Below, piece after piece: positions 18,893 to 35,246 of a stretch of DNA of 64,000 bases. The stretch covers positions 256,001 through 320,000 of the forward strand of contig CBDDBZ010000032.1 in assembly GCA_965225945.1 (NCBI GenBank). The letters are read 5' to 3'. The DNA comes from Alphaproteobacteria bacterium (lineage in GTDB: Bacteria > Pseudomonadota > Alphaproteobacteria > GCA-2731375). Below the pieces are notes generated by a model that searched no databases, had not been told where the DNA came from, and saw nothing but the letters and a program-made list of their open reading frames with translations. How positions within the stretch are numbered: position 1 is the stretch's first letter; each line of letters opens with the position of its first letter. A program made the translations under genes and the position numbers.

Positions 18893-21640
<2,748 letters not shown>

Positions 21641-21654
21641 ACGCGCGGGCGACG

Positions 21655-22830
21655 ATGACCGCCCCCAGGCCCTTCGAGATTCGCGTTTCCGACGAGGTGC
21701 TGGCGGACCTGGCCGCGCGGCTGGCGCGGGTGCGGGCGCCCTTGGCCAGCCCGGCCGAGGCCGGCTGGCACCATGGCATGGAGCCCGGCTACATGTCTCG
21801 CCTGCTGGCCTATTGGCGGGACGAATTCGATTGGCGGCGCATCGAGGCCGGCCTCAACCGGCATCCCCAATTCATCGCCGAGGTGGCTTTGGACGGGGCC
21901 GAGACGCCGCTCGAGATCCACTACATCCATCAACCGGGCGAGGGCGAGGCGAGGCTCCCCCTCCTGCTGCTCCACGGTTGGCCCGGATCGGTCGCGGAGT
22001 TCCAGGAGGTGATCGGTCCCCTGACGGAACCCGAGGCGCATGGCGGCCAGGCGGCGGACGGCTTCGAGGTCGTGGCGCCGTCGCTGCCGGGCTACGGCTT
22101 CTCCTCGGCGCCGGCCGGGCCGATCGGCCCGCGCGCTATCGCGGGCGTCATGCATCGGCTGATGACCGAGGTCCTGGGCCACCAGCGCTATATCGTGCAG
22201 GGCGGCGACTGGGGCGCCATCATCTCCGCCTGGATCGCGGTGGATCATCCCGAGGCGGTGCTCGGCGCGCACCTCAACATGGCGGCGCTTCGCCCGGCGA
22301 TCGGCCCCGACGACGCGGCGATGAGCGCCGACGAGAAGAGCTGGATCGAGAGCGCGCGCCGCCACTTGCGCCACGAGACCGCCTATCAAGACGTGCATGC
22401 GACCAAATCGGAGAGCCTGGCCTGGGGGCTGATGGATTCGCCCGCCGGCCTCGCCGCCTGGATCGTCGAGAAGTTCCACGGCTGGACCGATCCCGAGGCG
22501 AGCGAGCCGCCCTTCACCATGGACCAGTTGCTCGCCAACGTGATGATCTACTGGGTCACGGGCACGATCAATTCCTCCACCTGGCTCTATCGCGGGGCCA
22601 GGGAGAGTGGCGATCTCAGGGCCTCCGAAGGTGCGCGGATCGAGGTTCCCTGCGCTTACCTTCTGGCGCCGAGCGATCTGGTGCCGCCGCCGCCGACGAG
22701 CTGGCTCGCCCGCGTCGGCAACGTCACGCGGCGACGCGATCTCGCTAAGGGCGGCCATTTCGTCGCGCTGGAGAACGGCCCCGCCCTGGTCGAGGATATC
22801 CGTGCCTTCGCCCGCGACCATCTCCGCTGA
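21655..22830 (+). CDS. Epoxide hydrolase (EHN + alpha/beta hydrolase)
   Basis: PFEIRV, LLHGWPGS, PSLPGYGFS, QGGDWG, GGHFVALE. Confidence 0.92.
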   Translation: MTAPRPFEIRVSDEVLADLAARLARVRAPLASPAEAGWHHGMEPGYMSRLLAYWRDEFDWRRIEAGLNRHPQFIAEVALDGAETPLEIHYIHQPGEGEARLPLLLLHGWPGSVAEFQEVIGPLTEPEAHGGQAADGFEVVAPSLPGYGFSSAPAGPIGPRAIAGVMHRLMTEVLGHQRYIVQGGDWGAIISAWIAVDHPEAVLGAHLNMAALRPAIGPDDAAMSADEKSWIESARRHLRHETAYQDVHATKSESLAWGLMDSPAGLAAWIVEKFHGWTDPEASEPPFTMDQLLANVMIYWVTGTINSSTWLYRGARESGDLRASEGARIEVPCAYLLAPSDLVPPPPTSWLARVGNVTRRRDLAKGGHFVALENGPALVEDIRAFARDHLR

Positions 22831-23296
22831 GGCGCCCCGCCTCCGCACCGTCGGCTACGAGGGCGCCGGCATCGCCCGCTTTCTCGCCACGCTGGCCGCC
22901 GCGGGAATCGAGGTGCTGATCGACGTCCGCGCCCGGCCCTGGTCGCGCAATCCCGATTTCGTGAAATGCAATCTCTTGGGCCATGTGACGGCGGCCGGCA
23001 TGGGGTATCGGCACCTGGAATTGCTGGGGAGCCCGGACGCGCTCAGGGCCGCCGCGCGCGCGAGCGATTGCGATGCCTTTCCGGCGGGCTACCTCCGCCA
23101 CCTGGAAACCCCGGCGGCGCGCCGCGCCAGCGAGCTCGTCGTCGAACTCGCCCGCGAGCGCGCCGTGGCATTGATGTGCATGGAGGCCGATCCCGCCCGC
23201 TGCCACCGCTCCCTTCTCGCCGGGTGGTTGGCGGAGAAATATGGCTTCCGCGTCGCGCACCTCCACTGCGACCGGCAGGCCGCCTTCGACTTCTGA
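22802..23296 (+). CDS. DUF488 protein (start uncertain)
   Basis: TVGYEG, LIDVRARPWSR and LMCMEADPARCHR motifs. Confidence 0.8.
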   Translation: MPSPATISAEAPRLRTVGYEGAGIARFLATLAAAGIEVLIDVRARPWSRNPDFVKCNLLGHVTAAGMGYRHLELLGSPDALRAAARASDCDAFPAGYLRHLETPAARRASELVVELARERAVALMCMEADPARCHRSLLAGWLAEKYGFRVAHLHCDRQAAFDF

Positions 23297-23493
23297 TGCC
23301 GCGCGGAAGGATGCGTCGGCGGGCAATTAACCCGGATTTCGGCGAACCGGCGCGGCATTCGAGCCCCGCGACATGGCAAGGTGACGCCCGGTCCGGGCCC
23401 TTCGCGGGCGAAAACGACGAGTCGCCGGCAGTATATCTTACGTCCCTATCTGGTTAACGTCCCTATCTGGTTAAAGCAGGATGGGCTCCGAAT

Positions 23494-23508
23494 GTTCTTG
23501 ATATGTTC
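23494..23508 (+). promoter_or_regulatory. Alphaproteobacterial LexA (SOS) box
   Basis: GTTC-TTGATAT-GTTC (GTTC-N7-GTTC), 54 bp upstream of the transposase ATG. Confidence 0.7.
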
Positions 23509-23561
23509 TCCATAGAGGTGTAGGCTGATCGCATCGGCTGGAGCTTTTGGAGGACTATTCG

Positions 23562-24487
23562 ATGAGCGGGATATTGGAGTTCCTCGAACGCCATGGATCG
23601 GAGGCGGACTGCATCGAGGCGCTGGCTCGGCTGCGCTGGCCGCAAGGCTACGTCTGCGCGCGTTGCGGCGAGAGGCGGAACTACCTTGAAGACGCGGCCG
23701 CGGGTGAATGGCCGGTTGCGGCCATTCGGTGACCGCGGGCACGTCTTCGTTGCGCAAATGGTTCCTGGCGGCTGGATGGGGCGCGAGCGCGGGGTCTCGG
23801 CGCTGTTTCTGTCGCGAGAGTTGAGCCTTACGACACCGCCTGGCTGATGGCCCCAAGCTGCGCCATGCCCTGACGGAGCGCCCGGAGTTCCCGCTGGAGG
23901 GCTTGGTCGAGGTCGACGAGAGCTATTACGGCGGGCGGGGCAAGCCGGAGAGCCGGGGGCGCGGGCTTTCCAACCCGAACAAGAGCCTGTTGGTGATGGC
24001 GGTCGAGAAGTGGCCGGTCGGGTCGGGCAAGGGCATCAAGGGGAGCGGCTTCGCCGCCGGCGCCGCGCGGCTCGCCATCCTGCCCGAGGCCACCGCCCGT
24101 GAGTTGGGCGACTTCGTGCGCGCCTCGGTGAAGCCGGGAAGCCGCCTCGACAGCGACGCTTTCAAGAGTTACGCCAAGCTTGGCGATACTTATCGCCACC
24201 AGCCCGTCGTTCAAGGCCAAGGCAAGAACGCCGAGCAGCTCATGCCGGTCGTCCATGTCCTGTTTTCCAACGTGAAGACGTGGCTCAACGGAACCTACCA
24301 CGGGGTGAGCGCCAAGCATTTGCCGCGCTACGTCCGGGAATGGAACTACCGCTTCAACCGGCGCAAACGCATCTTCGACCTTGCCGATTTCGTGTTGCAC
24401 CGCGCCATGACCCGACCGACCATCACCTACAGGGAACTGGTCGACGGTATACAATCGCAGGGAGCGCTGCCTGCCCTAACCGGATAG
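23562..24487 (+). pseudogene. IS1595 transposase, frameshifted
   Basis: Zn-ribbon start (RWPQGYVCARC), VEVDESYYGG, KHLPRYVREWNYRFNRR; ten small deletions relative to copy 2. Confidence 0.9.
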
Positions 24488-24604
24488 GGACGATATCTTA
24501 AATTCAGAATATGAAGGTATCGATCAAAGCATTGAAATGAATTGGCTTTCTTGAGCCGCGTGCGGCCGGTGGGATTTCGTTCTGCAAATTCTTCGATTTT
24601 TCTA

Positions 24605-24647
24605 TACGGCGGGCGGGGCAAGCCGGAGAGCCGGGGGCGCGGGCTTT
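24605..24647 (+). repeat. Isolated 43-bp exact copy of an internal IS1595 transposase segment
   Basis: Identical to 23927-23969; embedded in AT-rich DNA outside the IS. Confidence 0.9.
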
Positions 24648-24719
24648 ATATCCAATATACCGTATTTGCAGTACTATTAATAACTGATCTATTCTCTCAC
24701 CCCCGAGATGCGCACAATA

Positions 24720-24797
24720 GGGGTCAGCGCAAATGGGTGCCCCTTGACCGCTATGCAAAATGCAAGACCTGACCCCCAGCTTGTGACCCCCAGCTTG
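24720..24797. repeat. GGGGTCAG...CTGACCCC mini-element with a 14-bp tandem duplication
   Basis: Inverted 8-mers at 24720-24727 and 24769-24776; TGACCCCCAGCTTG x2 at 24770-24797. Confidence 0.8.
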
Positions 24798-24804
24798 CAG
24801 ATCT

Positions 24805-25335
24805 CAAGAACACAAGTCACCCGAATACTTTGTGATCAATCCCAACGGCGCGTTGCCGGCTTTAGTCGATCGCGATCTGAAACTATGGGAATCGAACGCG
24901 ATTCTGCAATATGCCGCAGACAAGGTTGGTGCGTCCGCAGCCTATCCCCAGGATCTTCAGGTGCGAGGGGATATCAACCGCTGGCTTTTGTGGGAGGCAA
25001 GCGCCTGGTTTCCAACCTGCTATGTGTATCTCGTGGAGAACTTCGCTAAGCCCCGATTAGGAGATCCGCCTGACCCGAAAGTCCTCGAAGCGGAAGCACC
25101 GAATTTCCATAAGCTCGCCGGCATTTTGGATACACGATTGGCCGGACAAGCATGGATCTGTACGACGCCGGACCCCACGATTGCCGACATCTTCATGGCT
25201 TCTCCCATGCATTTGGGTCATCGCCAAAAGTTGCCATTAGAGGAGTATCCGAACCTTCGCGCCTGGATGGGCCGGATCGAAGACCTGCCATGCTGAAAGA
25301 GCACGGACGTCACGTCCTTGCTGGGTCTGAACTAG
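24805..25335 (+). pseudogene. Glutathione S-transferase, 5'-truncated, with a premature TGA
   Basis: EHKSPEYFVINPNGALPAL...LWESNAILQY...TIADI; no N-terminus; LPC*KSTD, where TGA 25294 is probably a former TGG. Confidence 0.85.
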
Positions 25336-25464
25336 ACCTCTGAGAATTCCTACGCCGCATACCTTGGCGACGCGCGTTGATTTTTGATCGGGTACTGTTT
25401 GCGTAATGCCTCGGCGCAGCACCAAGTACCAAGATGGCTGGTTACAGGTAATGAGTGGGAACAG

Positions 25465-27153
25465 TCATTCCGGTAGTCCGGCTTGGTGCAGAAAATCAAG
25501 GAGGCGGCCGAGATCTTTTTGGTTCTTGAAAGGTAGTGTTCTGGAGAGGTTGCGAAGCGAGTATACGGGGTTCAATCCGAGTAGTTCCTTTACCTCGACC
25601 CTTGCCTCGTCAAGCCTACCCAAGGCTACAAGGGACGCCGCCAGACCGCCCCGATTGATTGGATTATCGGGACCCGAATTCAAGGCTTCTAAGAATGCTC
25701 TCTCTGCCTCTACATAATTGCCAAGAACAAATTGCGTACGGCCGAGTTGGCCGCTGTAAGAAGCCGGTAATTGTGGATTTATCTCCATGGCTATTTTCAT
25801 ATTGGCCAGGCCCTCTTCAGCACGCTCGGCATGTGTGAGGATGTGGCATAAGATTGCGTACCCATCAGCGCTATTTGGATTTAACTTTATGGCTCTTTGC
25901 AGGCTGTCAATTGCGCGGTCGTGAAGACGCACATGGAGTTCCGCCATGCCAAGCATCAGGTGACTGGCCGGCGCCTTGTCGTCTAACACGACGGTCTCTC
26001 GCGCTAGTTCATGGCTTTGCCTGAACGCACCTTCGATATCCTCGACCCATTGATACCCTCCTCGGTTAAGGTACACCCAGGCCAGCAACCTGTAAGCCCC
26101 GGCGAATCTTGGCGCCAAGTTCTTGGCTTTCTCACCTAGCTTGCGCGCTTCTTCGTTATCCGAGCGGGTGAAGCGCCGGTAATGGGCAAAACCCCGCGAA
26201 ACCAGGTCGTAGGCATTTGCGTGGTTCGGATCCCCGCCGATGGCCCGCGCCATGCCATCCTCAAAGATCAATTCACCAAGAGTGCTGGCAATAATCCGTG
26301 TGACCTCGTCCTGTACCTCGAAAGTATCTTTCAGATCACGATCGTAGCGCTCTGCCCACAAGTGAGTGCCGATCGTTCCGTCGATCAATTGGGCGGTGAT
26401 GCGAAGCCGCTGGCCGGCTCGACGTACGCTACCTTCCAGCACGTACCGAGCGCCGAGCTCCTGGGCAATTTTCGTAGGATCAGTCGGGCTGCCCTTATAA
26501 ATGAAAGTCGCGTTTCGGGCGATGACGTGAAAGCCCCTGTAGCGAGAGAGCTCGGTAATAATGTCTTCGGTGAGGCCGTCGGCGAAGGCCTCCTGCTCGG
26601 GATCGCCCGAAATGTTGTCGAAAGGCAGCACGGCGATGGAGGGCTTGTCGGGAAGGGAGAGTTCGACTTGTGCCGCGTCTTTCGTCGCTGTGTCGGCGGC
26701 CCAATGCCAAGTACGGACCGCTTGGGCAATATTCTTGAATTCCTGTTTCCCGCCATCCGTCAAGGCGAGATCGAGGCGTCCCCGTACCTGGCGCATGACG
26801 TCGTCGGAGATACAAATGCCCCCGGGCTTGGCCTCGCCCTCTAGGTGTGCGGCGATGTTGACGCCGTCCCCATGGATATCATCTCCATCGACCACCACAT
26901 CGCCAAGGTTAATACCAATGCGGATCTCTATGCGGCGGTCTTCGGGGACATCTGCATTACGTTCGATCATGGCCCGCTGGATAGTTACAGCACATTCGAC
27001 CGCTGCCACGGCGCTGGGGAACTCCACAAGGCGACTGTCGCCTGCGGTGCTGACCAGGCGTCCACCAAAGGCTTCGGTCGTCGGGTCCCAAAGTTCCGAC
27101 CTATGTGCCCGCATTGCCGCGAGGGTGCCGGCCTCATCCCCTGAAATCAGGCG
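25465..27153 (-). pseudogene. Adenylate/guanylate cyclase-TolB-like-TPR protein, N-terminus removed at the IS256 junction
   Basis: DEAGTL, AGDS, RIGINLGDV, GDGVNIAA, KPSIAVLPFDN, TPRs; the first catalytic Asp segment is missing. Confidence 0.85.
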
Positions 27154-27190
27154 GAGCAACCTGATGTGTGGAAATTCGGAACGCCGTTGA

Positions 27191-28369
27191 TCAGTCATCC
27201 TCTGCTTTCCAAGTGATGTAGGGTTTTTCGGTGGTTTCCCATTTCTCGTCGATTTCGACGAGGATGGCGGTGACCAGACGTTCGAGCGAGGCCTCGTTGG
27301 GAAAGACCCTGACCTTTACGGTGCGGCGCTTGATCTCCTGCTGGATGGATCGCTCCATGGGGTTCGAGGTTCGCATGCGCTTTTGGTGGCGCTCGGGCAG
27401 GGCGAAGACGGCGAGGCCCTCGGGGATCGCCGTCTCCAGCCAATCGGCGAGCTTGGGGGCGCTGTCGCGGTAGGCCGCCACCAGATGGCCCAGCTCGGCC
27501 TCGGCGGCCTTGCCGTCGGCGGCGTTCCAGACCCGGCGCAGCTCCTTGCCGATGGCCTTTCGGATGGCGAGGTTGGGGGCGTGATGGATGGCGTTTTGAG
27601 CCAGATGGTACTGACAGCGCTGCCAGACGGCGCCGCCGAGGACGGCCTTGCGCGCGGCGCCGAGGCCTGGATGATCATCGGAAACGATATAGGCGACACC
27701 GCGCATGCCACGGGCAACCAGGGTCTCCAGGAAGGCGCGCCAGTGCACTTCGGCCTCGGAGAGCGCACAGGAAACACCGAGCACCCGGCGGCGCTGGTCG
27801 GGGCCGATGCCGATCACCGAGAGCACGGCGGCGTCGCGCACCACGCCACCCTCTCGGACTTTCTCATAGCGCGCGTCGAGGAGCAGGTAGCGGATCTCGC
27901 CCAGCGGCCGGTTGCGCCAGGCATCCAGCTCCCCATCCAAGAGCTTGGCGGCGCGGCTGACCTGGCTCGACGACAGGCTCTCCAGGCCGAACTCGCGCAT
28001 CACCGCCTCGGCGTCACGGGTGGAGACGCCTTTGATATACATCTCCGCCACGGCCAGCATGACAGCGCGGCAGGAGCGCCGTCCGCGCTCCAGGGCTTGG
28101 GGGTAAAAAGGCGCCTCATGACCGGCGGTCTTGGGAACCTCGAGCCTCACCGTACCGGCCGGGGTGTCGATCTTCTTGGGTCTGGTGCCGTTGGCGTATC
28201 CCCGCCGCTCGGGCGTGCGCTCATAGTGGCCGGCGCCCAAGAACCTCTCCCGCTCGATCCGCATGGCGAGATTGAAAAGGCCGGCGAAGACCGTCGCCAT
28301 GTTCTCGCTACCGCCTTCGATCAATTGTTCCACCAAAGCCTCGACAGCGCTATCCTGGTCTTTCCGCAT
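27191..28369 (-). CDS. IS256-family transposase
   Basis: GYANG, GVSTRD, YLLLDARYEKVR, VSDDHPGL, WQRCQYH, RTSNPMER. Confidence 0.95.
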   Translation of the reverse strand: MRKDQDSAVEALVEQLIEGGSENMATVFAGLFNLAMRIERERFLGAGHYERTPERRGYANGTRPKKIDTPAGTVRLEVPKTAGHEAPFYPQALERGRRSCRAVMLAVAEMYIKGVSTRDAEAVMREFGLESLSSSQVSRAAKLLDGELDAWRNRPLGEIRYLLLDARYEKVREGGVVRDAAVLSVIGIGPDQRRRVLGVSCALSEAEVHWRAFLETLVARGMRGVAYIVSDDHPGLGAARKAVLGGAVWQRCQYHLAQNAIHHAPNLAIRKAIGKELRRVWNAADGKAAEAELGHLVAAYRDSAPKLADWLETAIPEGLAVFALPERHQKRMRTSNPMERSIQQEIKRRTVKVRVFPNEASLERLVTAILVEIDEKWETTEKPYITWKAEDD

Positions 28370-28421
28370 ACTGGTTCTCCATGTTTGTTTGGACGCTTTC
28401 ATGGATAACCAAAATGACGGA

Positions 28422-28457
28422 TCGCCCCGCGCCGGGGTATACCCCGGCGCGGGGCGA
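28422..28457. repeat. 36-bp perfect palindrome in the IS256 leader
   Basis: TCGCCCCGCGCCGGGGTA|TACCCCGGCGCGGGGCGA. Confidence 0.9.
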
Positions 28458-28611
28458 AGCCAAATTTCCAGACCTCACGCTACACAAGGTAGTCCATAGG
28501 AGGGGCCCGCGCGCGGGCCGACGCGCCCACCACGCGGCTGGCGGCGGACCGCGCGTGGGAGGTTCCTGTGGGCCCACCTGGGCGACCGGGCGGCAGGTGG
28601 ATCGGTTGCCT

Positions 28612-29340
28612 TTAGGACCGATTCTTGAAGCGCCAGGAGTCGTTTCCGGTCTCGATGATCTCGCAGTGGTGCGTCAGACGATCGAGGAGCGCGGTGGTCA
28701 TCTTGGCGTCGCCGAAGACGGACGGCCATTCGCCGAAGGTCAGGTTGGTGGTGACGATGATCGAGGTGCGCTCGTAGAGCCGGCTGACGAGGTGGAACAG
28801 CAGCTGGCCTCCGGTTTGGGCGAAGGGCAGGTAGCCGAGCTCGTCGAGGATGACGAGGTCGCGCCGGGCCAGCTGATCGGCGAGCCGGCCCTGGCGGCCG
28901 GCGCGGGCTTCGGCCTCGAGCCGGTTGACCAGGTCGACGACGTTGAAGAAGCGGCCCCGGGCGCCATCGCGGATGCAGGCCCGCGCGATGGCGACGGCGA
29001 GATGGCTCTTGCCGGTGCCGGTGCCGCCGATCAGCACGGCGTTGCGCTGGTTGGCCAGGAAGCCGCCGACCGCCAACTCGCGGACCAGCGGCTCGTTGAC
29101 CGGGGTGTCGGTGAAGTCGAAGTCGGCCAGCTCCTTGGCCAGCGGCAGCTTGGCGCCACTCATCTGGTACTTGATGGATCGCGCCTGCTTGTCGGCGATC
29201 TCGGCCTTCAACAGCTCGCCGATGATTCGCTGCATCGGATGCTGGCGCTTGAGGCCGTCGGCGAGCACCTCGTCGAACGCGTCGCGCATGCCGGCGAGCT
29301 TGAGTGCGGCCATCATCTCCAGGACCTCATGGCGCTCCAT
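28612..29340 (-). CDS. istB: IS21 helper ATPase IstB
   Basis: GGTGTGKSH Walker [23 protein letters not shown]. Confidence 0.96.
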
Positions 29341-30632
29341 GGCCGACCCCCCTCAAGCGGTCGTAGCGGGTGCAATCGGCCACCGGCTCAAAGCGAAGAC
29401 GCAGGTTCGCGGGCGTCGGGATCGGCGCCGTCTCGGACGGCTGGCGCCGACGATTGAGGATGTTGAGCACGACGTCGGCGCTGCACACGCCGCCAGCGAG
29501 CGCCTCGGCACAGGCGGCCTCCACCGCCGCCAGCCCATCCGCCAGCACGGCGGTGAGGATCTCGACCATCTGCCTGTCGCCGTCGTCGTGGCCGGCGAGC
29601 CGGACGCGCACGCGACCCAGGGCGCCGGGCAGCGCCCAGTCCTTGAACGGCGCGCCGTTACGAAGCGCACCGGGCTTCCTCGCCAGCACGGGCACGTAGT
29701 GCCACGGGTCATAGACGGTCTGGTCGCGGCCGAAGCGCCGGGCATGCTCGGCGACGATCTCGCCGTCCTGGCGGATGACGATGCGATCGGCGTAGGCATG
29801 GACCTCGACCGGACGGCCGACGGCGCGCGCCGCCACGCTGTACTTGTTGCTGTCGAAGCGCACCAGGCAGGTCTTCGACACCGACGCCGGGACCGCGTGG
29901 AAGCCGTCGAACGGCCCGCGATAGCCGACCAGGGACGGACGCTCGTCCTCGAACACCTGCCAGACAGTCCTGTCCTTGAACACCGGGTGGGGATGACGCC
30001 GGGCGTAGGCGACGCACTGGTCCAAGAGCCAGGCGTTGAGCTCGTCGTAGGTCTTGAAGCGCAGCCGCGGGGTGAAGAACCGACCGCGGATGATCCCGAC
30101 CTGGTTCTCGACCTGCCCCTTCTCCCATCCCGCTCCCGGCGTGCATGCTGTCGGTTCGACCAGGTAGTGGCCACACATCTGCACGAAGCGCCGGTTGAAC
30201 GCGCGCTCCTTGCCGATGAGGACGGTCTGCACCGCCGTCTTCATGTTGTCGTAGATGCCTCGCCGGCAGGCACCCTGGAACAGCCGGAATGCCCGGCCGT
30301 GGGCGTCGAACACCATCTCCTGGCTCTCGCGCGGATAAGCGCGGACGAAGAATATTCCTTGCCTATCCGGTTATCACCCACACCCACTATATGTAGTGTG
30401 CACCCATTTTCCTGAGTAAAGCTCGGTGCAGGTCGAAGCGGAGATATCTCCGGCGATGCCGAGCAGGGACTCGGACGGCATTGTAGCGCCTTTTAGGCGA
30501 CACTTTAGCGTGGTGGAAATCCTAATCATTGAGTCGGATTTGGCAAAACGCCACGTTGCATAAAGGACCGTCACTTCATTGAAATTTATCTGAAATCGGA
30601 GGTGAACGACACCGATGGAATATTCCAGGAAA

Positions 30633-30941
30633 TCAGAGCTTCATTGAATTGTAGGATTCGAGTGCCGGATTATTCACAAATAGCTCTGTGAACTGGTTTT
30701 CAAGTTCGCTCAATACGCCATATGAAGTAAACGGATTGAGGATCACGTTCTTGCGTGTCGCTTCGTCTTCGCTGCGACTCAAAACGCGCAGGAGACTAAC
30801 AGGCGCGGACGGGTTCTTCGCAACGATTCGTGCCAGCGCGTCGCTTTCTTCGACTAGTGCCGTCAATCGCTCAGACGATGTCGTTTCATCAGCAGCTTCC
30901 CGTCTGGCCGTGGGTTTCTTCGTTTTTCCCTTGGTCGCCAC
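30633..30941 (-). CDS. Small LRV/HEAT-like repeat protein (cassette passenger)
   Basis: VAKNPSAPVSLLRVL, VILNPFTSYGVLSEL and FVNNPAL repeats; GGGGA RBS. Confidence 0.65.
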   Translation of the reverse strand: MATKGKTKKPTARREAADETTSSERLTALVEESDALARIVAKNPSAPVSLLRVLSRSEDEATRKNVILNPFTSYGVLSELENQFTELFVNNPALESYNSMKL

Positions 30942-31081
30942 CGTTCCGTCCCCCGATGTTAAATACGTGACGTGAATTAAACTCCGGTTCGGTTTTCAGA
31001 ACAATCAAGAATTAGCCGGATCGCCTCCTCAATGCGCCTGCGCCGGCCCTTGCCTGCAGTCCAAGGAGACACACTACATAT

Positions 31082-32010
31082 CGTCCCTATCCGGTTAAGG
31101 CAGGCAGCGCTCCCTGCGATTGTATACCGTCGACCAGTTCCCTGTAGGTGATGGTCGGTCGGGTCATGGCGCGGTGCAACACGAAATCGGCAAGGTCGAA
31201 GATGCGTTTGCGCCGGTTGAAGCGGTAGTTCCATTCCCGGACGTAGCGCGGCAAATGCTTGGCGCTCACCCCGTGGTAGGTTCCGTTGAGCCACGTCTTC
31301 ACGTTGGAAAACAGGACATGGACGACCGGCATGAGCTGCTCGGCGTTCTTGCCTTGGCCTTGAACGACGGGCTGGTGGCGATAAGTATCGCCAAGCTTGG
31401 CGTAACTCTTGAAAGCGTCGCTGTCGAGGCGGCTTCCCGGCTTCACCGAGGCGCGCACGAAGTCGCCCAACTCACGGGCGGTGGCCTCGGGCAGGATGGC
31501 GAGCCGCGCGGCGCCGGCGGCGAAGCCGCTCCCCTTGATGCCCTTGCCCGACCCGACCGGCCACTTCTCGACCGCCATCACCAACAGGCTCTTGTTCGGG
31601 TTGGAAAGCCCGCGCCCCCGGCTCTCCGGCTTGCCCCGCCCGCCGTAATAGCTCTCGTCGACCTCGACCAAGCCCTCCAGCGGGAACTCCGGGCGCTCCG
31701 TCAGGGCATGGCGCAGCTTGTGGGCCATCAGCCAGGCGGTGTCGTAGCGCAGGCTCAACTCTCGCGACAGAAACAGCGCCGAGACCCCGCGCTTGTCGCG
31801 CCCCATCCACCACGCCGCCAGGAACCATTTGCGCAACGGTGTGCGGGTGCGGTGGAAGACCGTGCCCGCGGTCACCGATTCCTGATGGCCGCAACCGGCG
31901 CATTCGAAGACCCGCGGCCGCGTCTTCAATTGGTAGTTCCGCCTCTCGCCGCAACGCGCCCAGACGTAGCCTTGCGGCCAGCGCAGCCGAGCCAGCGCCT
32001 CGATGCAGTC
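31082..32010 (-). mobile_element. IS1595-family element, copy 2, left end missing
   Basis: Near-identical to copy 1; TIR at 31082-31098; reading frame intact but 5' end lost and a Zn-ribbon Cys changed to Trp (YVWARC). Confidence 0.9.
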
Positions 32011-32888
32011 CGCCTGCGCCGGCCCTTGCCTGCAGTCCAAGGAGACACACTACATATAGTGGGTGTGGGTGATAACCGGATAGGCAAGGAACATTCGGCT
32101 GTGGCACAGCCGGACGTGCGCGACCTTGACCTTGGTCGTCACCCCCGCCAGCACCACGTACTCGTGGCTCCAGTCGAACTGATAGGCCTCGCCCGGCGAG
32201 AACACCAACGGCACATAGGTCTGCGCCGTCGATGCCGAACGGCGCCACCGCCACGCCTTGGCGTAGCGCCGCACCGCGTCGTAGCCGCCGCCATAGCCCA
32301 GGCCCTCGAGGGCTTCGGAGATCCGTAGCAGCGTCAGCCGCTCCCGCTTCGACTTGGTCTCGTTGGCCTCCAGCATCCGCTCCAGCTCGGCCGTCCACGG
32401 CCCCAGCTTCGGCATCGGCTGGACCCGCCGGTCGTAGGTGAACGCCGTCGCCTGCGAACGGATCACCTTGCGCACCGTGTTGCCCGAGACCTTCACGTCC
32501 CGCACGATCTCCTTGATCGGCTTCCCCTTGACGAAATACTCCCGCCGGATCCGCGCTATCGTCTCCACGACCAACATCCCCCACCACCTCGTCCGCCCAA
32601 AAACGAGGTGACTTGGACTAGCCAGGCTCAGGGGGTCAAATTTGGACGCCGATCACCCCTCAACAGGGGTCAACTTTGCACGCCGTTCCACAAGCTAAGT
32701 GTAGCGAAGAGGCGGACCCGCTCAAGGCTATACCGAACGTTGCGAAGATGCTTGAATGCCAACAAGCTCGGACGGCGACTCTTGGCTATCAATGACCGAA
32801 TCGGCCGAATCAGCGGCACGGGGAATATACCCCCAATCCCGATTTCCGGGGACACCGATGGAGTGCACCCCCTGGATGACACAAAGAA

Positions 32889-33750
32889 TCAGGGACAGTT
32901 GGTTGTCATTTCCAGCGCCCGCCGGGCGGCGGTCTCTGGGGTGATTATGGTGTTTTCGAACTCCTCTGGTGATAGGTATCGAAGCGCCGAGTGGAGGCGC
33001 GTCTTGTTGTAGACCTCTTTGATGAAGCTGGCGATGTCGCTCTCGGCGTGGGCGATGTCCCGGTAGGGCCTGCCCTCAACCTCCTCTGTCTTCAAGGTCT
33101 TCATGAAGCTCTCCGCCATGGCGTTGTCGTAAGGGCAGGCGATCCGGCTCATCGAGGGCAGGATGCCATGGGCCTCCAGGCGGGCGATGTAGTCGCCGGA
33201 GGCATATTGAACGCCGCGATCGGAGTGATGCACCAGGCCATCGGGGATCACCTCGCGCTCCAGAAGCGCCATATCCAAGGCCGCCAGCGTCAGGCTCGCC
33301 TTCAGATGATCGGCCAAGGCCCAGCCGATGACGCGCCGGCTGTGCGCATCGAGCACGACCGCCAGATAGGCGAAGCCCTCCAGCAAGCGAACATAGGTGA
33401 TGTCGGCGACCCAGAGCTGGTTGGGGGCCGTCGTCTCCAACCGGCGCGCCAGGCTGGGATAGATCCGATAGCTATGCTTCGAGTCCGTGGTAGCCGGCGC
33501 GAAGCTCCGTCGACGCAGGCATAGCAGATTGTCCTCGCGCATCAAACGCAGCACCCGCTTGTGGTTGACGCTCCAGCCCTCGCGCCGCAACAGCGCCCCG
33601 ATCCGCCGATAGCCGTAATGTTTGTTGTCGATCGCCCAAGCGCTGGAGCTTATCGCGTAACGCCGTTTCCTCAGCCCTCGGCCTCGATGCCCGCCAATGG
33701 CGGTGAAAGCTCGATCGGCTCAGCCCCATCAGATCGCACATCCGTCCCAT
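32889..33750 (-). pseudogene. IS3 OrfB integrase with a +1 frameshift near 33636
   Basis: YGYRRI, WVADITY, HHSDRGVQY, DNAMAESF; one extra G in TTGGGCG (may be a sequencing error). Confidence 0.85.
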
Positions 33751-33752
33751 GC

Positions 33753-34211
33753 TCAATCCGCCTTGCCGCCGCGACCCGGCCCGGACGAGGCCGAAGACGC
33801 GCTCCCGCCAGAGCGACCGTTCGCTCCGCGGCAGCTCTCCGAGAGCCGCAAGGCTTGCCTGAAAAAATCCGCTTCCAAGGCCTGCTGGCCGACCTTCCGC
33901 TCCAGCTCGGCGATCCGCCGGCGCGCCAGGCTCAGGGCATCCGGCCGGACCGCCGGAACAGCACTTTCGGACCCGGCGCGGAGGCCTTGCGCCCGCCTCC
34001 CTCCGACGACCGTGCTTCCCTTTCTGGGCCGGCCGGGCGGGCGCAAGGCCTCCGCGCCGCCCGCTCGGTAGGCATCGCGCCACTCGTAGAGCAGCTTGCG
34101 CCGGACCTCGAGCTCGCGTGACAGCGCCGAGACGTTCTCGCCCGACTCCATCCGCGCCAGCGCCGACAGCTTGAAGTCTCGGCTGAAACGCCGTGCACCT
34201 TTTCGTTCCAT
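33753..34211 (-). CDS. IS3 OrfA
   Basis: RRFSRDFKL HTH, RIAELERKVGQQALEADFF zipper; GAGGAGG RBS. Confidence 0.9.
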   Translation of the reverse strand: MERKGARRFSRDFKLSALARMESGENVSALSRELEVRRKLLYEWRDAYRAGGAEALRPPGRPRKGSTVVGGRRAQGLRAGSESAVPAVRPDALSLARRRIAELERKVGQQALEADFFRQALRLSESCRGANGRSGGSASSASSGPGRGGKAD

Positions 34212-34410
34212 CAGTTCCTCCTCGGAAGAACTGTCACTCATTTCTCTGTGTCAGGACAGGGGTGCGGTCCACCGATTTCCGGGGACCAGATTTCCGGGGA
34301 CAGTTGCCGATTTCTTAATTCCCTGCCGGTTTTCGCCCACATTCAAAGAGTTCTCAAAGACATCGTGATCCACGGTCCGCCCTTCATCTCATGGTGGAGG
34401 GTCGCCCAAG

Positions 34411-34440
34411 AGTAGTCTGGGGACAGTAGTCTGGGGACAG
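34411..34440 (+). repeat. Tandem AGTAGTCTGGGGAC x2 ending in GGGGACAG
   Basis: Read directly from the sequence; lies at the right island boundary. Confidence 0.85.
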
Positions 34441-34565
34441 TTTTCTATTTTTGCAACGTGGCAAATTCCTGCCTTGAGGTCGAGCCATGGCCCGCTCGGC
34501 ATGTCTCGACCACGCGATCGGCGCCACTTGCCCCGCTTGCTCGCGGCGACAGCACCCGCCCGCCC

Positions 34566-35246
34566 TCACCCCCCCCCCTCGACGATCACATGCTCTCGCG
34601 TGATGATCAGCGGGATGGGTTCGTCGGGCAAAAAATTCGGCTCGTCGGCTCGCGTCGCGCGGTAGGCCTCGGAGCGCGCCGAGGCCCGCATGGCGTCGGT
34701 GTCGTCGAACCAGGTGATCGCCAAGCCGTCATACCTCGGCGCCCGGCCCGACGTATAGGCGCCGAGGCGGACGTGGCTCTGCACGTAGCGCCGGATCTGG
34801 GGAATCTTGGCGGCCAAGGGCCCGTGGACCTCGCGCCAATAGCGCTGGAACGCCTCGACTTCCAGACCTGGGCGGCGAGTCACGAACTCGACGTTCTTGA
34901 CCGCGCCGTCCGGAATTTCGCCGTCGAGGATGACGTGCTCGTCCAGCAGCATCAGCACCATGGCCGAGCGGTCGATGAACTTGGCCTCGTCTTCCTCCAG
35001 GTCGCGGTACTCTCGAGTCCCCGCCAGATGCTTCAAGGCGGCGAGATCGTCGAACCAGAGCTCGGCGATGCCGTCGTGGACCAGCTCGCCCTTGGCGTAG
35101 CCGGAGAGCCGCGCGTGGCTCTGCACGTAGCGCCGGAGACCGGGTAGGCGCGAGACCACCCCGGCGTGGCGGCTGTGCCAGTATTCCTGGAACGGCTCCA
35201 GCGCCATGCCGGCCTTGCGCTTGATGCAAACCGCGACCTTGAGCAT
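34566..35246 (-). CDS. Tandem EthD-domain protein
   Basis: Two repeats of FQxYW..H...RRYVQSH...DG(I/L)A(E/I)xWFDD. Confidence 0.88.
   Translation of the reverse strand: MLKVAVCIKRKAGMALEPFQEYWHSRHAGVVSRLPGLRRYVQSHARLSGYAKGELVHDGIAELWFDDLAALKHLAGTREYRDLEEDEAKFIDRSAMVLMLLDEHVILDGEIPDGAVKNVEFVTRRPGLEVEAFQRYWREVHGPLAAKIPQIRRYVQSHVRLGAYTSGRAPRYDGLAITWFDDTDAMRASARSEAYRATRADEPNFLPDEPIPLIITREHVIVEGGG

Follow-up and report, generated by a model that had tools for sequence, protein, structure and literature searches.

IS200/IS605 insertion sequences (IS), such as IS608 and ISDra2, use HUH/Y1 chemistry with cleavage 3' of a short recognition sequence at the left boundary. REP/REPIN-RAYT systems combine GTAG-headed, individually palindromic REP units with a single-copy, vertically inherited RAYT. 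TIRtrons, as set out in the accessible parts of Di Nocera, De Gregorio & Rocco (2013, BMC Genomics 14:522, PMC3733652), carry a RAYT-like Y1/HUH gene, TIRYT, between terminal inverted repeats (TIRs) that share GGGGWSAS; TnpA-Y1 subclass 2.1, with the consensus GGGG[AT][CG]A[CG], equals the TIRYT class in the accessible part of Quentin et al. (2018, PMC6006769). Here we analyzed a 64,000-nucleotide (nt) stretch of an alphaproteobacterial genome (contig CBDDBZ010000032.1, hereafter the window, to which positions refer unless a contig is named), in which an interval of 9.7 kb is bordered by tandemly duplicated GGGG(A/T)CA motifs. We conclude, with a probability of roughly 75%, that these motifs are the heads of TIRtron ends, that the DNA piled up between them is a rearrangement junction and that the tandem units reflect a habit of the whole element family.

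The identity of the motif follows from the genome that holds the window (G000; 6.27 Mb, 96.5% complete; its contigs are given as C numbers). A search with the Y1_Tnp profile PF01797 recovered nine loci, three with intact frames of 223 codons and six truncated, frameshifted or stopped, and all nine are flanked by inverted repeats with the conserved core GG(G/T)G(A/T)CA. We call this core the head, the element sequence inside it the body, and a tandem repetition that includes the head a stutter. The ends AAAAAGGGGTCATTGTACTTT ... AAAGTAGAATGACCCCTTTTT surround two identical intact f-type TIRYT copies (220 aa) on C22 and C35, which together with a third, diverged copy make TIRYT a multi-copy gene in this genome. 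On C30, an a-type pair encloses a truncated gene, and its left end matches the a-type end of the window; more generally, the a-type and d-type ends of the window match ends that flank TIRYT genes at C30 16168, at L054 in the relative G015 and at L050 in the relative G001. The same head with its duplication recurs elsewhere in G000 directly before conserved sequences, some of which open into the start of a RAYT-like gene, and these heads also lie as inverted pairs on either side of Y1 genes in G000, in its relatives and at 80 loci of other phyla. The TIRYT proteins matched Y1_Tnp in 5/5 cases tested and scored 78-90 bits on the REP-associated tyrosine transposase model NF047646 (cut-off 80). 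Four families (f, i, g and d) have gene-less derivatives of 44-59 bp that consist of a left end fused to a right end, among which is the 57-bp unit of the window; solo ends occur as well. Left and right flanks of whole elements are not direct repeats in G000, the relatives or the other phyla, and thus no target-site duplication was found. The notion that the heads are pre-existing palindromic targets ("empty sites") was rejected, as just one GGGGACATGACCCC is present in the genome.

The window contains three degenerate, gene-less ends of this family: a d-type right end at the edge of R1, a low-copy repeat; an a-type left end; and a c-type, head-like left end. An earlier note on this DNA had reported tandem duplications at these three sites, and direct reading of the letters together with repeat finding confirmed all of them. 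Its description of the unit as the motif plus a flank facing the interval also held, except that the flank, given there as 6-10 nt, measures 5-9 nt; its statement that such motifs flank some RAYT-like Y1/HUH genes agrees with the two published consensus sequences and with the nine loci above. Read on the motif strand, the d-type unit consists of CAAGCT and GGGGGTCA and is followed by the TIR body GGTCTTGCAT, with no periodic letters beyond its two units. The c-type unit consists of GTAGTCT and GGGGACA, and GTTTTCTATTTTTGC comes after the stutter. An IS3-family copy with a CCGA target duplication splits the a-type units, from which it follows that the a-type site had three tandem units before the insertion. 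The heads of the window that carry the GGGGWSAS motif are GGGGTCAG, GGGGACAG and GGGGACAC. The homologue of the a-type remnant at C30 16168 has a truncated TIRYT gene. In another a-type body copy (L002, C11 ~20000-20150) lies a long imperfect palindrome (...CGCCCTTCATCTCATGG ... CCATGAGATGAAGGGCG), of which the window body keeps only the left arm (34383-34400).

Logan contigs gave an independent view of these sites. The c-type stutter was found with zero differing letters in contigs of runs X16 and X17; across the four runs, it was the same in 2 contigs, the contigs broke inside the a-type stutter, and no variant unit numbers were seen at the window stutters. A single X16 joint (32852 -> 34270, side of 23 letters) may represent an IS3-free form or a repeat artefact, and was too weak to be used.

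The stutters are not peculiar to the window. A genome-wide test for tandem duplications with a unit of 11-23 nt ending at GGGG[AT]CA detected them at 23/1044 such sites in G000 versus 742/895,347 sampled positions, which places motif-plus-duplication sites above background. Among exact tandem duplications of period 11-20 in G000, 14/187 contain the head. When the ends themselves were probed with a 10-mer (3 outer nt plus the head) recurring no more than 40 nt farther out, stutters appeared at 28/196 TIR ends (f 6/91, i 4/28, g 12/31, d 3/32 and a 3/14) and at 3/379 ends of DDE-type elements (IS1595, IS256, IS21, the 755-bp element and IS3), a count that misses the terminal duplication of the window's own IS1595 copy. 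Pairs of heads 11-17 nt apart numbered 121 in 33 genomes of the bacterial family versus 42 for a backwards control (22 versus 1 in G000, 21 versus 3 in G001). Among 28 Y1 loci from 24 relatives of the same family, visual inspection revealed stutters at five (L054, L043, L058, L062 and, at both of its ends, L068), and longer end repeats were present at three more. The longest head stutters of G000 are arrays of at least five tandem 14-nt units (A/C)AGGCCAGGGGTCA at C36 85176-85240 and 86666-86730 (L011), one of which abuts the end of another IS.

Beyond the family, a contig scan of one genome per species with an alignment of six TIRYTs yielded 585 confirmed relatives, and we examined the best 80 of these 585. 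The 80 loci come from Zeta-, Gamma- and Betaproteobacteria, Nitrospira, Acidobacteriota, Desulfobacterota and others, share the conserved end GGGGTCAGGTCTTG, and have a stutter at 16/50 left and 15/40 right ends. Under a strict definition, a tandem duplication reaches the head at 27/108 ends, with units of 8-33 nt that include 1-18 nt of flank unrelated between loci. In 21 of these 27, the inner boundary falls exactly at the head/body junction, 3' of GGGGTCA. A test tolerating one or two mismatches found a duplication ending exactly at the junction in 29/150 heads, versus 1011/302,247 background positions of the same loci; shifting the end point gave 24/150 at +1 nt, 19/150 at +2 nt and 7/150 at +3 nt. 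The tandem units are therefore a family-wide habit, in which 1-18 nt of host flank or outer TIR tip, together with the head, has been copied again once to several times. The flanks differ between the window sites and among the 27 stuttered ends from other phyla, in keeping with the earlier suggestion of independent events of one process.

Other elements meet at the same head/body junction. The element beginning TGGCGTAATTGAG belongs to the IS110 family (~1.55 kb, with a 343-aa frame as its gene; NF033542 at 218.6 and 215.2 bits, cut-off 140) and was located in G000 at C30 138363 (-), C11 18365 (+), C4 10677, C34 299320, C37 134523, C13 7351 and C30 140410 (L001, L002 and L013). All seven left junctions inspected follow GG(G/A)(G/A)ACA, and at the right junctions of the two copies inspected the a-type end is restored (...ACA|GTT), indicating that this IS110-family element targets the head/body junction of a-type ends. 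Its DEDD transposase, matching the IS110 model, and its sequence-specific insertion lacking a long target duplication agree with membership in that family. Since IS110 elements are RNA-guided and this one is inserted at heads, its bridge RNA is predicted to be complementary to the TIR head. For the IS3 family, 6/7 copies lie in or beside a TIR. A GG(G/T)G(A/T)CA head precedes 4/5 left ends at a distance of exactly 4 nt, and three of these four have a matching 4-nt target duplication, which equals the first 4 nt of the TIR body. The deletion in the window's glutathione S-transferase (GST) gene also ends at a stutter. A further IS, ending in ...TGTATCGCACCCGGTTCC, lies in or right after d-type heads at C20 ~1750, C31 ~158950, C4 ~72150 and C36 86666; the three cases linked to R1 share flanks and may go back to one event that was later duplicated.

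The inner edge of the stutters probably marks the cutting site of the enzyme, because it lies exactly 3' of GGGGTCA in 21/27 strict cases, and this sharp breakpoint fits the enzymatic nick at the motif that the earlier note had envisaged. We hypothesize that TIRYT, once bound to the head, cleaves the GGGGWCA strand immediately 3' of this motif, in the manner of IS608 TnpA at TTAC, and that a faulty or aborted resealing step inserts the last 8-20 nt a second time. The first extra copy may arise through enzyme-mediated strand transfer of a short segment of flank and head, or when strand-displacement synthesis proceeds a short way and the enzyme, still covalently attached, rejoins the DNA; with two units in place, normal slippage could add or trim units. 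This proposal builds on a sharp, sequence-defined inner breakpoint, variable outer ones, the presence of flank in the unit and the independent occurrence at both ends. As the exact route of stutter formation, we rate it somewhat below even odds. The wider proposition is more tentative still: the stutters may be footprints of TIRYT catalysis, with a nick 3' of GGGGWCA on each end's own strand followed by faulty transfer, in which case genome sequence would reveal the cleavage site and its polarity, and the nicked junction would be a hot spot that recruits IS110 and IS3 elements and seeds deletions and rearrangements. In the literature searched, the name TIRYT is used in just three papers, and we found no publication on the mechanism or cleavage site of TIRYT. 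Fill-in with Ku-dependent end joining was disfavoured and dropped because Ku (PF02735) was not found in G000, an absence that is no proof in an assembly of this completeness.

The same duplications might form by an error of replication or repair that involves no cleavage, if a polymerase coming in from the flank is held up at the head, by tightly bound TIRYT or by a DNA structure, and the nascent strand re-primes a few nt back. A fixed stall point would fit the sharp inner and variable outer edges; similar flank-plus-tip duplications occur, rarely, at DDE ends (IS1595 and IS21), and R1 carries a 43-nt insertion, apparently templated, as evidence of template switching at this locus. Microhomology at the joints is also as in the background: two-copy events at heads show 0-3 extra periodic letters (10 in one case), as most other duplications do, a likeness that made microhomology uninformative as a discriminator of slippage from end joining. 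However, the stalling model requires re-priming without microhomology, leaves unexplained why the edge coincides with the cut position of IS608-type Y1 enzymes (IS608 TnpA cuts 3' of TTAC), and does not account for a rate at TIR ends ~18 times that at DDE ends, even though DDE ends are also protein-bound; we therefore consider it unlikely. That the units are instead selected, iteron-like extra binding sites that help TIRYT to recognize or regulate its ends is improbable. HUH replication proteins elsewhere use tandem iterons near the nick site, and stutters are frequent (25-37% of ends), but neither the two identical intact f-type copies nor the C37 copy is stuttered, the number, length and flank content of the units vary by locus, stutters are commonest at decayed or solo ends, and no conservation of a stutter was seen between copies of one family. 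Highly improbable, in turn, is nested self-insertion, in which a second copy lands at the head/body junction of a resident and homologous recombination removes one of the two, leaving an extra tip and head. Insertions of other elements do concentrate at the junction, and stacks in which all units start at the same outer position do resemble repeated insertion; nevertheless, the repeated outer part of d-type stutters is host flank, unrelated between loci, which a new copy would not bring, mini-elements of ~50 bp are too short for frequent recombination, and no nested TIRtron was seen at the junction (the g-in-h nesting on C26 lies 29 nt inside).

The interval as a whole had been read in the earlier note as bracketed cargo at a transposase-less, integron-like hotspot, at which an HUH enzyme supplied in trans would nick the motifs, take up foreign DNA and leave tandem scars behind. 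Several observations speak for that view. The motif does belong to HUH/Y1 elements; GC content is 0.53-0.58 at 24-27 kb and returns to the host level past the right repeat (0.70 or more from 35 kb on); the GST gene is cut at the left stutter, its frame beginning ~2-5 nt past it with ~35 N-terminal residues missing; and the low-GC, strain-specific DNA at 24.8-27.2 kb has no contiguous ortholog (24797-27153) in 12 relatives, where only paralogous cyclase and GST matches were found. Capture itself is not supported by orientation and content. The left motif reads TGACCCC on the plus strand and is a right-end-type head with its element body (R1) to the left, and the right motifs read GGGGACA and are left-end-type heads with bodies to the right; with the tips facing inward, none of the three elements includes the interval. 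Of its 9.7 kb, ~7.5 kb is taken up by nested IS copies of kinds that are numerous elsewhere, and the sole non-IS coding DNA consists of two truncated genes, the GST gene and an adenylate/guanylate cyclase gene with tetratricopeptide repeats (TPR). We found no recombinase, integrase or HUH gene among the 22 distinct open reading frames (ORFs) of at least 70 aa in the window, and no attC- or ter-like end in the interval. The DUF488-EthD interval is not invariant in relatives, as expected from capture, but the flanks are not even adjacent there: the DUF488 flank is syntenic with G002:C5:1.82 Mb and G001:C16, the EthD flank with G001:C4 and G002:C5:0.50 Mb, so that they lie 1.3 Mb apart in G002 and on separate contigs in G001, which fits a rearrangement. 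In G001, an intact d-type TIRtron (L050) directly adjoins EthD. Across the genome, when left ends are paired with the nearest right end of their family, 57/61 pairs hold 44-1128 bp, none of these being cargo-sized; the other four, of 1.7-4.4 kb, were left unexamined. We therefore regard gene capture as extremely improbable and the interval as a rearrangement and deletion junction, filled with nested IS1595, IS256, IS21, IS3 and 755-bp elements and two truncated genes.

Several observations weigh against the assignment to TIRtron ends with a family-wide stutter. No TIRYT gene is present among the ORFs scanned in the interval, so that the window ends are gene-less remnants of the family rather than complete members. 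In G000, truncation, a frameshift or a stop has broken the TIRYT genes of types a, d and g, and the intact genes are limited to three of 220 aa, f-type or related; a cognate enzyme is not apparent at present. Within the window, GGGGWCAS by itself shows no enrichment (13 matches versus 10.1 +/- 3.6 expected; 23/100 shuffles reach 13), and the c-type "head" may be a sequence within the a-type remnant that resembles a head. Six of the 27 strict stutters run 1-13 nt into the body. The microhomology shared with other duplications of the genome leaves room for replication errors, and the rare look-alikes at DDE ends (3/379 and the window IS1595) indicate that some enzyme-independent route exists. 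In the literature, we found no biochemical demonstration of cleavage at the junction for any TIRYT.

The content of the interval was established by BLAST of 23-36 kb against the whole genome for copy numbers, by repeat finding and by Pfam searches of the ORFs, and its features are listed in the table below. The scanned ORFs of the window encode DDE/IS proteins, DUF488, an epoxide hydrolase, the GST and cyclase-TPR fragments, an LRV-like ORF, EthD and GGT, the last encoded beyond EthD on the right flank.

Features of the window between the DUF488 and EthD genes, with further copies of the IS3-family element in G000
Feature	Position	Strand	Basis and copies
DUF488 gene, last conserved gene of the left flank	22607-23296	plus	PF04343, 97 bits
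R1, left part (~370-bp low-copy repeat, split by IS1595)	23323-23440		copies C23, C39, C27, C20, C31; partial C4, C11
IS1595-family copy A, 8-bp target duplication ATATCTTA	23441-24492	plus	PF12762; ~19 copies
R1, right part, d-type TIR end (...AAGACCTGACCCCC)	24493-24777		alignment of R1 copies
57-bp mini-element (head pair) GGGGTCAG...CTGACCCC	24720-24776		identical unit at C39 74028
d-type stutter, TGACCCCCAGCTTG x2 exact, 14-nt units	24770-24783 + 24784-24797	minus	
GST gene, 5'-truncated	24799-25296	plus	Pfam GST_N/GST_C
Adenylate/guanylate cyclase-TPR gene, 5' end cut by the IS256 copy	25465-27198	minus	Pfam; cyclase match starts at profile position 50
IS256-family (Mutator-type) IS	27154-28488	minus	PF00872, 298 bits; ~30 copies
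IS21-family IS, larger part (IstB and C-terminal IstA)	28487-30357	minus	PF01695, PF22483; ~48 copies
~755-bp-type high-copy element, 51-bp inverted ends, inserted in the IS21 copy	30350-32096		coverage ~80
IS1595 copy B, inside the ~755-bp-type element, inverted relative to copy A	31078-32040	minus	PF12762 + PF12760
IS21-family IS, remaining part, multi-repeat end	32089-32692	minus	genome BLAST/coverage
a-type stutter, unit 1, (C)CGATTTCCGGGGACA, also given as (C)CCGATTTCCGGGGACA	32838-32854	plus	
IS3-family element, target duplication CCGA, inserted 4 nt after the head	32859-34271	minus	rve + HTH_Tnp_1; 7 copies in genome
a-type stutter, units 2 and 3 (15 and 16 nt)	34272-34286, 34287-34302	plus	
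a-type body remnant (GTTGCCGATTTC...), ~107 bp, no transposase gene after it	34303-34409	plus	homologous to copies at C30 16168, C11, C34
c-type stutter, GTAGTCTGGGGACA x2 exact, 14-nt units	34412-34425 + 34426-34439	plus	
EthD-domain gene, first conserved gene of the right flank	34566-35246	minus	PF07110
IS3-family copies elsewhere in G000	C22 21932-23343; C33 171689-173100; C36 83238-84664; C30 15073-15808; C32 63350-65336		

R1 is AT-rich and non-coding and has ~6 copies (for example, C23 57903-58262 and C39 73738-74090); just one of its sides ends in a d-type TIR, and the left end (CCCGGATTTCGGCGAAC) bears a faint resemblance to an a-type tip and head. Inserted in R1 at 24605-24647, ~110 bp from the IS, is a 43-nt stretch identical to positions 23927-23969 inside the IS1595 transposase gene. 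It is missing from the other R1 copies and looks like a templated insertion made during repair. IS1595 copy A has a 17-nt tandem duplication of its own terminal inverted repeat (23440-23473), and comparable duplications of flank and tip were found on C27 at a second IS1595 end and on C28 at an IS21 end. The GST fragment is 72% identical to a full-length homologue in G001; a tblastn search of G000 with the N-terminus of that homologue found no trace of the missing 5' piece (best E = 1.9). The ~755-bp-type element contains an intact-looking IS1595 transposase gene of 317 aa, and a 55-nt direct repeat at its joints (31030-31084 and 32006-32060) suggests recombination between related ends rather than simple insertion. 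Approximately 160 bp of unique DNA separates the IS21 copy from the a-type units. Downstream of EthD, the Logan contigs of all four runs lack 3 nt of a poly-C run (34566-34577), which reflects a length-variable homopolymer or an assembly difference. A search of 22800-35200 against Rfam in E-value mode gave a single sub-threshold match (M23 sRNA, 28.7 versus 41.2 bits) within the DUF488 gene, and with no match above threshold an RNA explanation of the interval was rejected.

Taken together, the element family is already known, and this locus is an ordinary, decayed example of it with a family-wide scar. New here are the nucleotide-exact breakpoint statistics, the comparison with DDE ends, the convergence of IS110 and IS3 elements, and the finding that the "island" is a rearrangement junction; in the accessible parts of the TIRtron literature, we found no printed description of the stutter or its fixed breakpoint, and literature searches for the end sequence returned unrelated primers alone. 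TIRYT/TIRtron elements are widespread, with 585 relatives in many phyla, and an inner edge fixed 3' of GGGGTCA provides a testable prediction of the position and strand of the cut; if it is true, plain genome sequence reveals the cleavage site and polarity of a phylum-spanning family of HUH transposases. The convergence of IS110 elements, IS3 elements and gene truncation on the junction suggests that such small ends help to shape IS accumulation and rearrangement in IS-rich genomes. For annotation, tandem repeats of head and flank beside low-GC junk are to be taken as decayed TIRtron ends and not as cassette boundaries.

Among the known systems, IS91/ISCR elements and Helitrons come to mind through the HUH enzyme (IS91 and Helitron) and through the acquisition of DNA beside a specific end. 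In contrast to these and to integrons, no transposase or integrase gene belonging to such a system was found in the interval, the head orientation is wrong for read-through capture, and, in place of the intact cassettes of integron or rolling-circle systems, the DNA present consists of insertion sequences and pieces of genes. The ends described here are inverted repeats, whereas IS200/IS605 elements lack terminal inverted repeats and carry subterminal hairpins, and the IS200 model NF033573 gave 17-21 bits (cut-off 55) in the 4/5 TIRYT proteins that matched it at all; to our knowledge, tandem end-stutters are not known for IS200/IS605. The resemblance to REP/REPIN-RAYT systems is closer: the Y1/HUH transposase belongs to the same superfamily, short non-autonomous inverted doublets, here the 44-59-bp mini-elements, are able to fold as hairpins, and IS110-family elements target the repeats. 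However, the heads here read GG(G/T)G(A/T)CA and not GTAG, single ends are not self-complementary, and TIRYT is multi-copy, with identical genes on C22 and C35. The TIRtrons are the match. The window differs from a complete TIRtron in that its ends are gene-less, solo and decayed, and the RAYT-like Y1 gene between GGGGWSAS inverted repeats stands elsewhere in G000. As in the accessible descriptions of TIRtrons, gene-less TIR copies are moderately abundant and occur singly, as dimers or in clusters. For the C-terminal helix-turn-helix (HTH) domain given for subclass 2.1 in the accessible part of Quentin et al., HTH_23 reached 27.2 bits (cut-off 24.6) in the d-type protein of G001, with no Pfam HTH match in the other four proteins tested.

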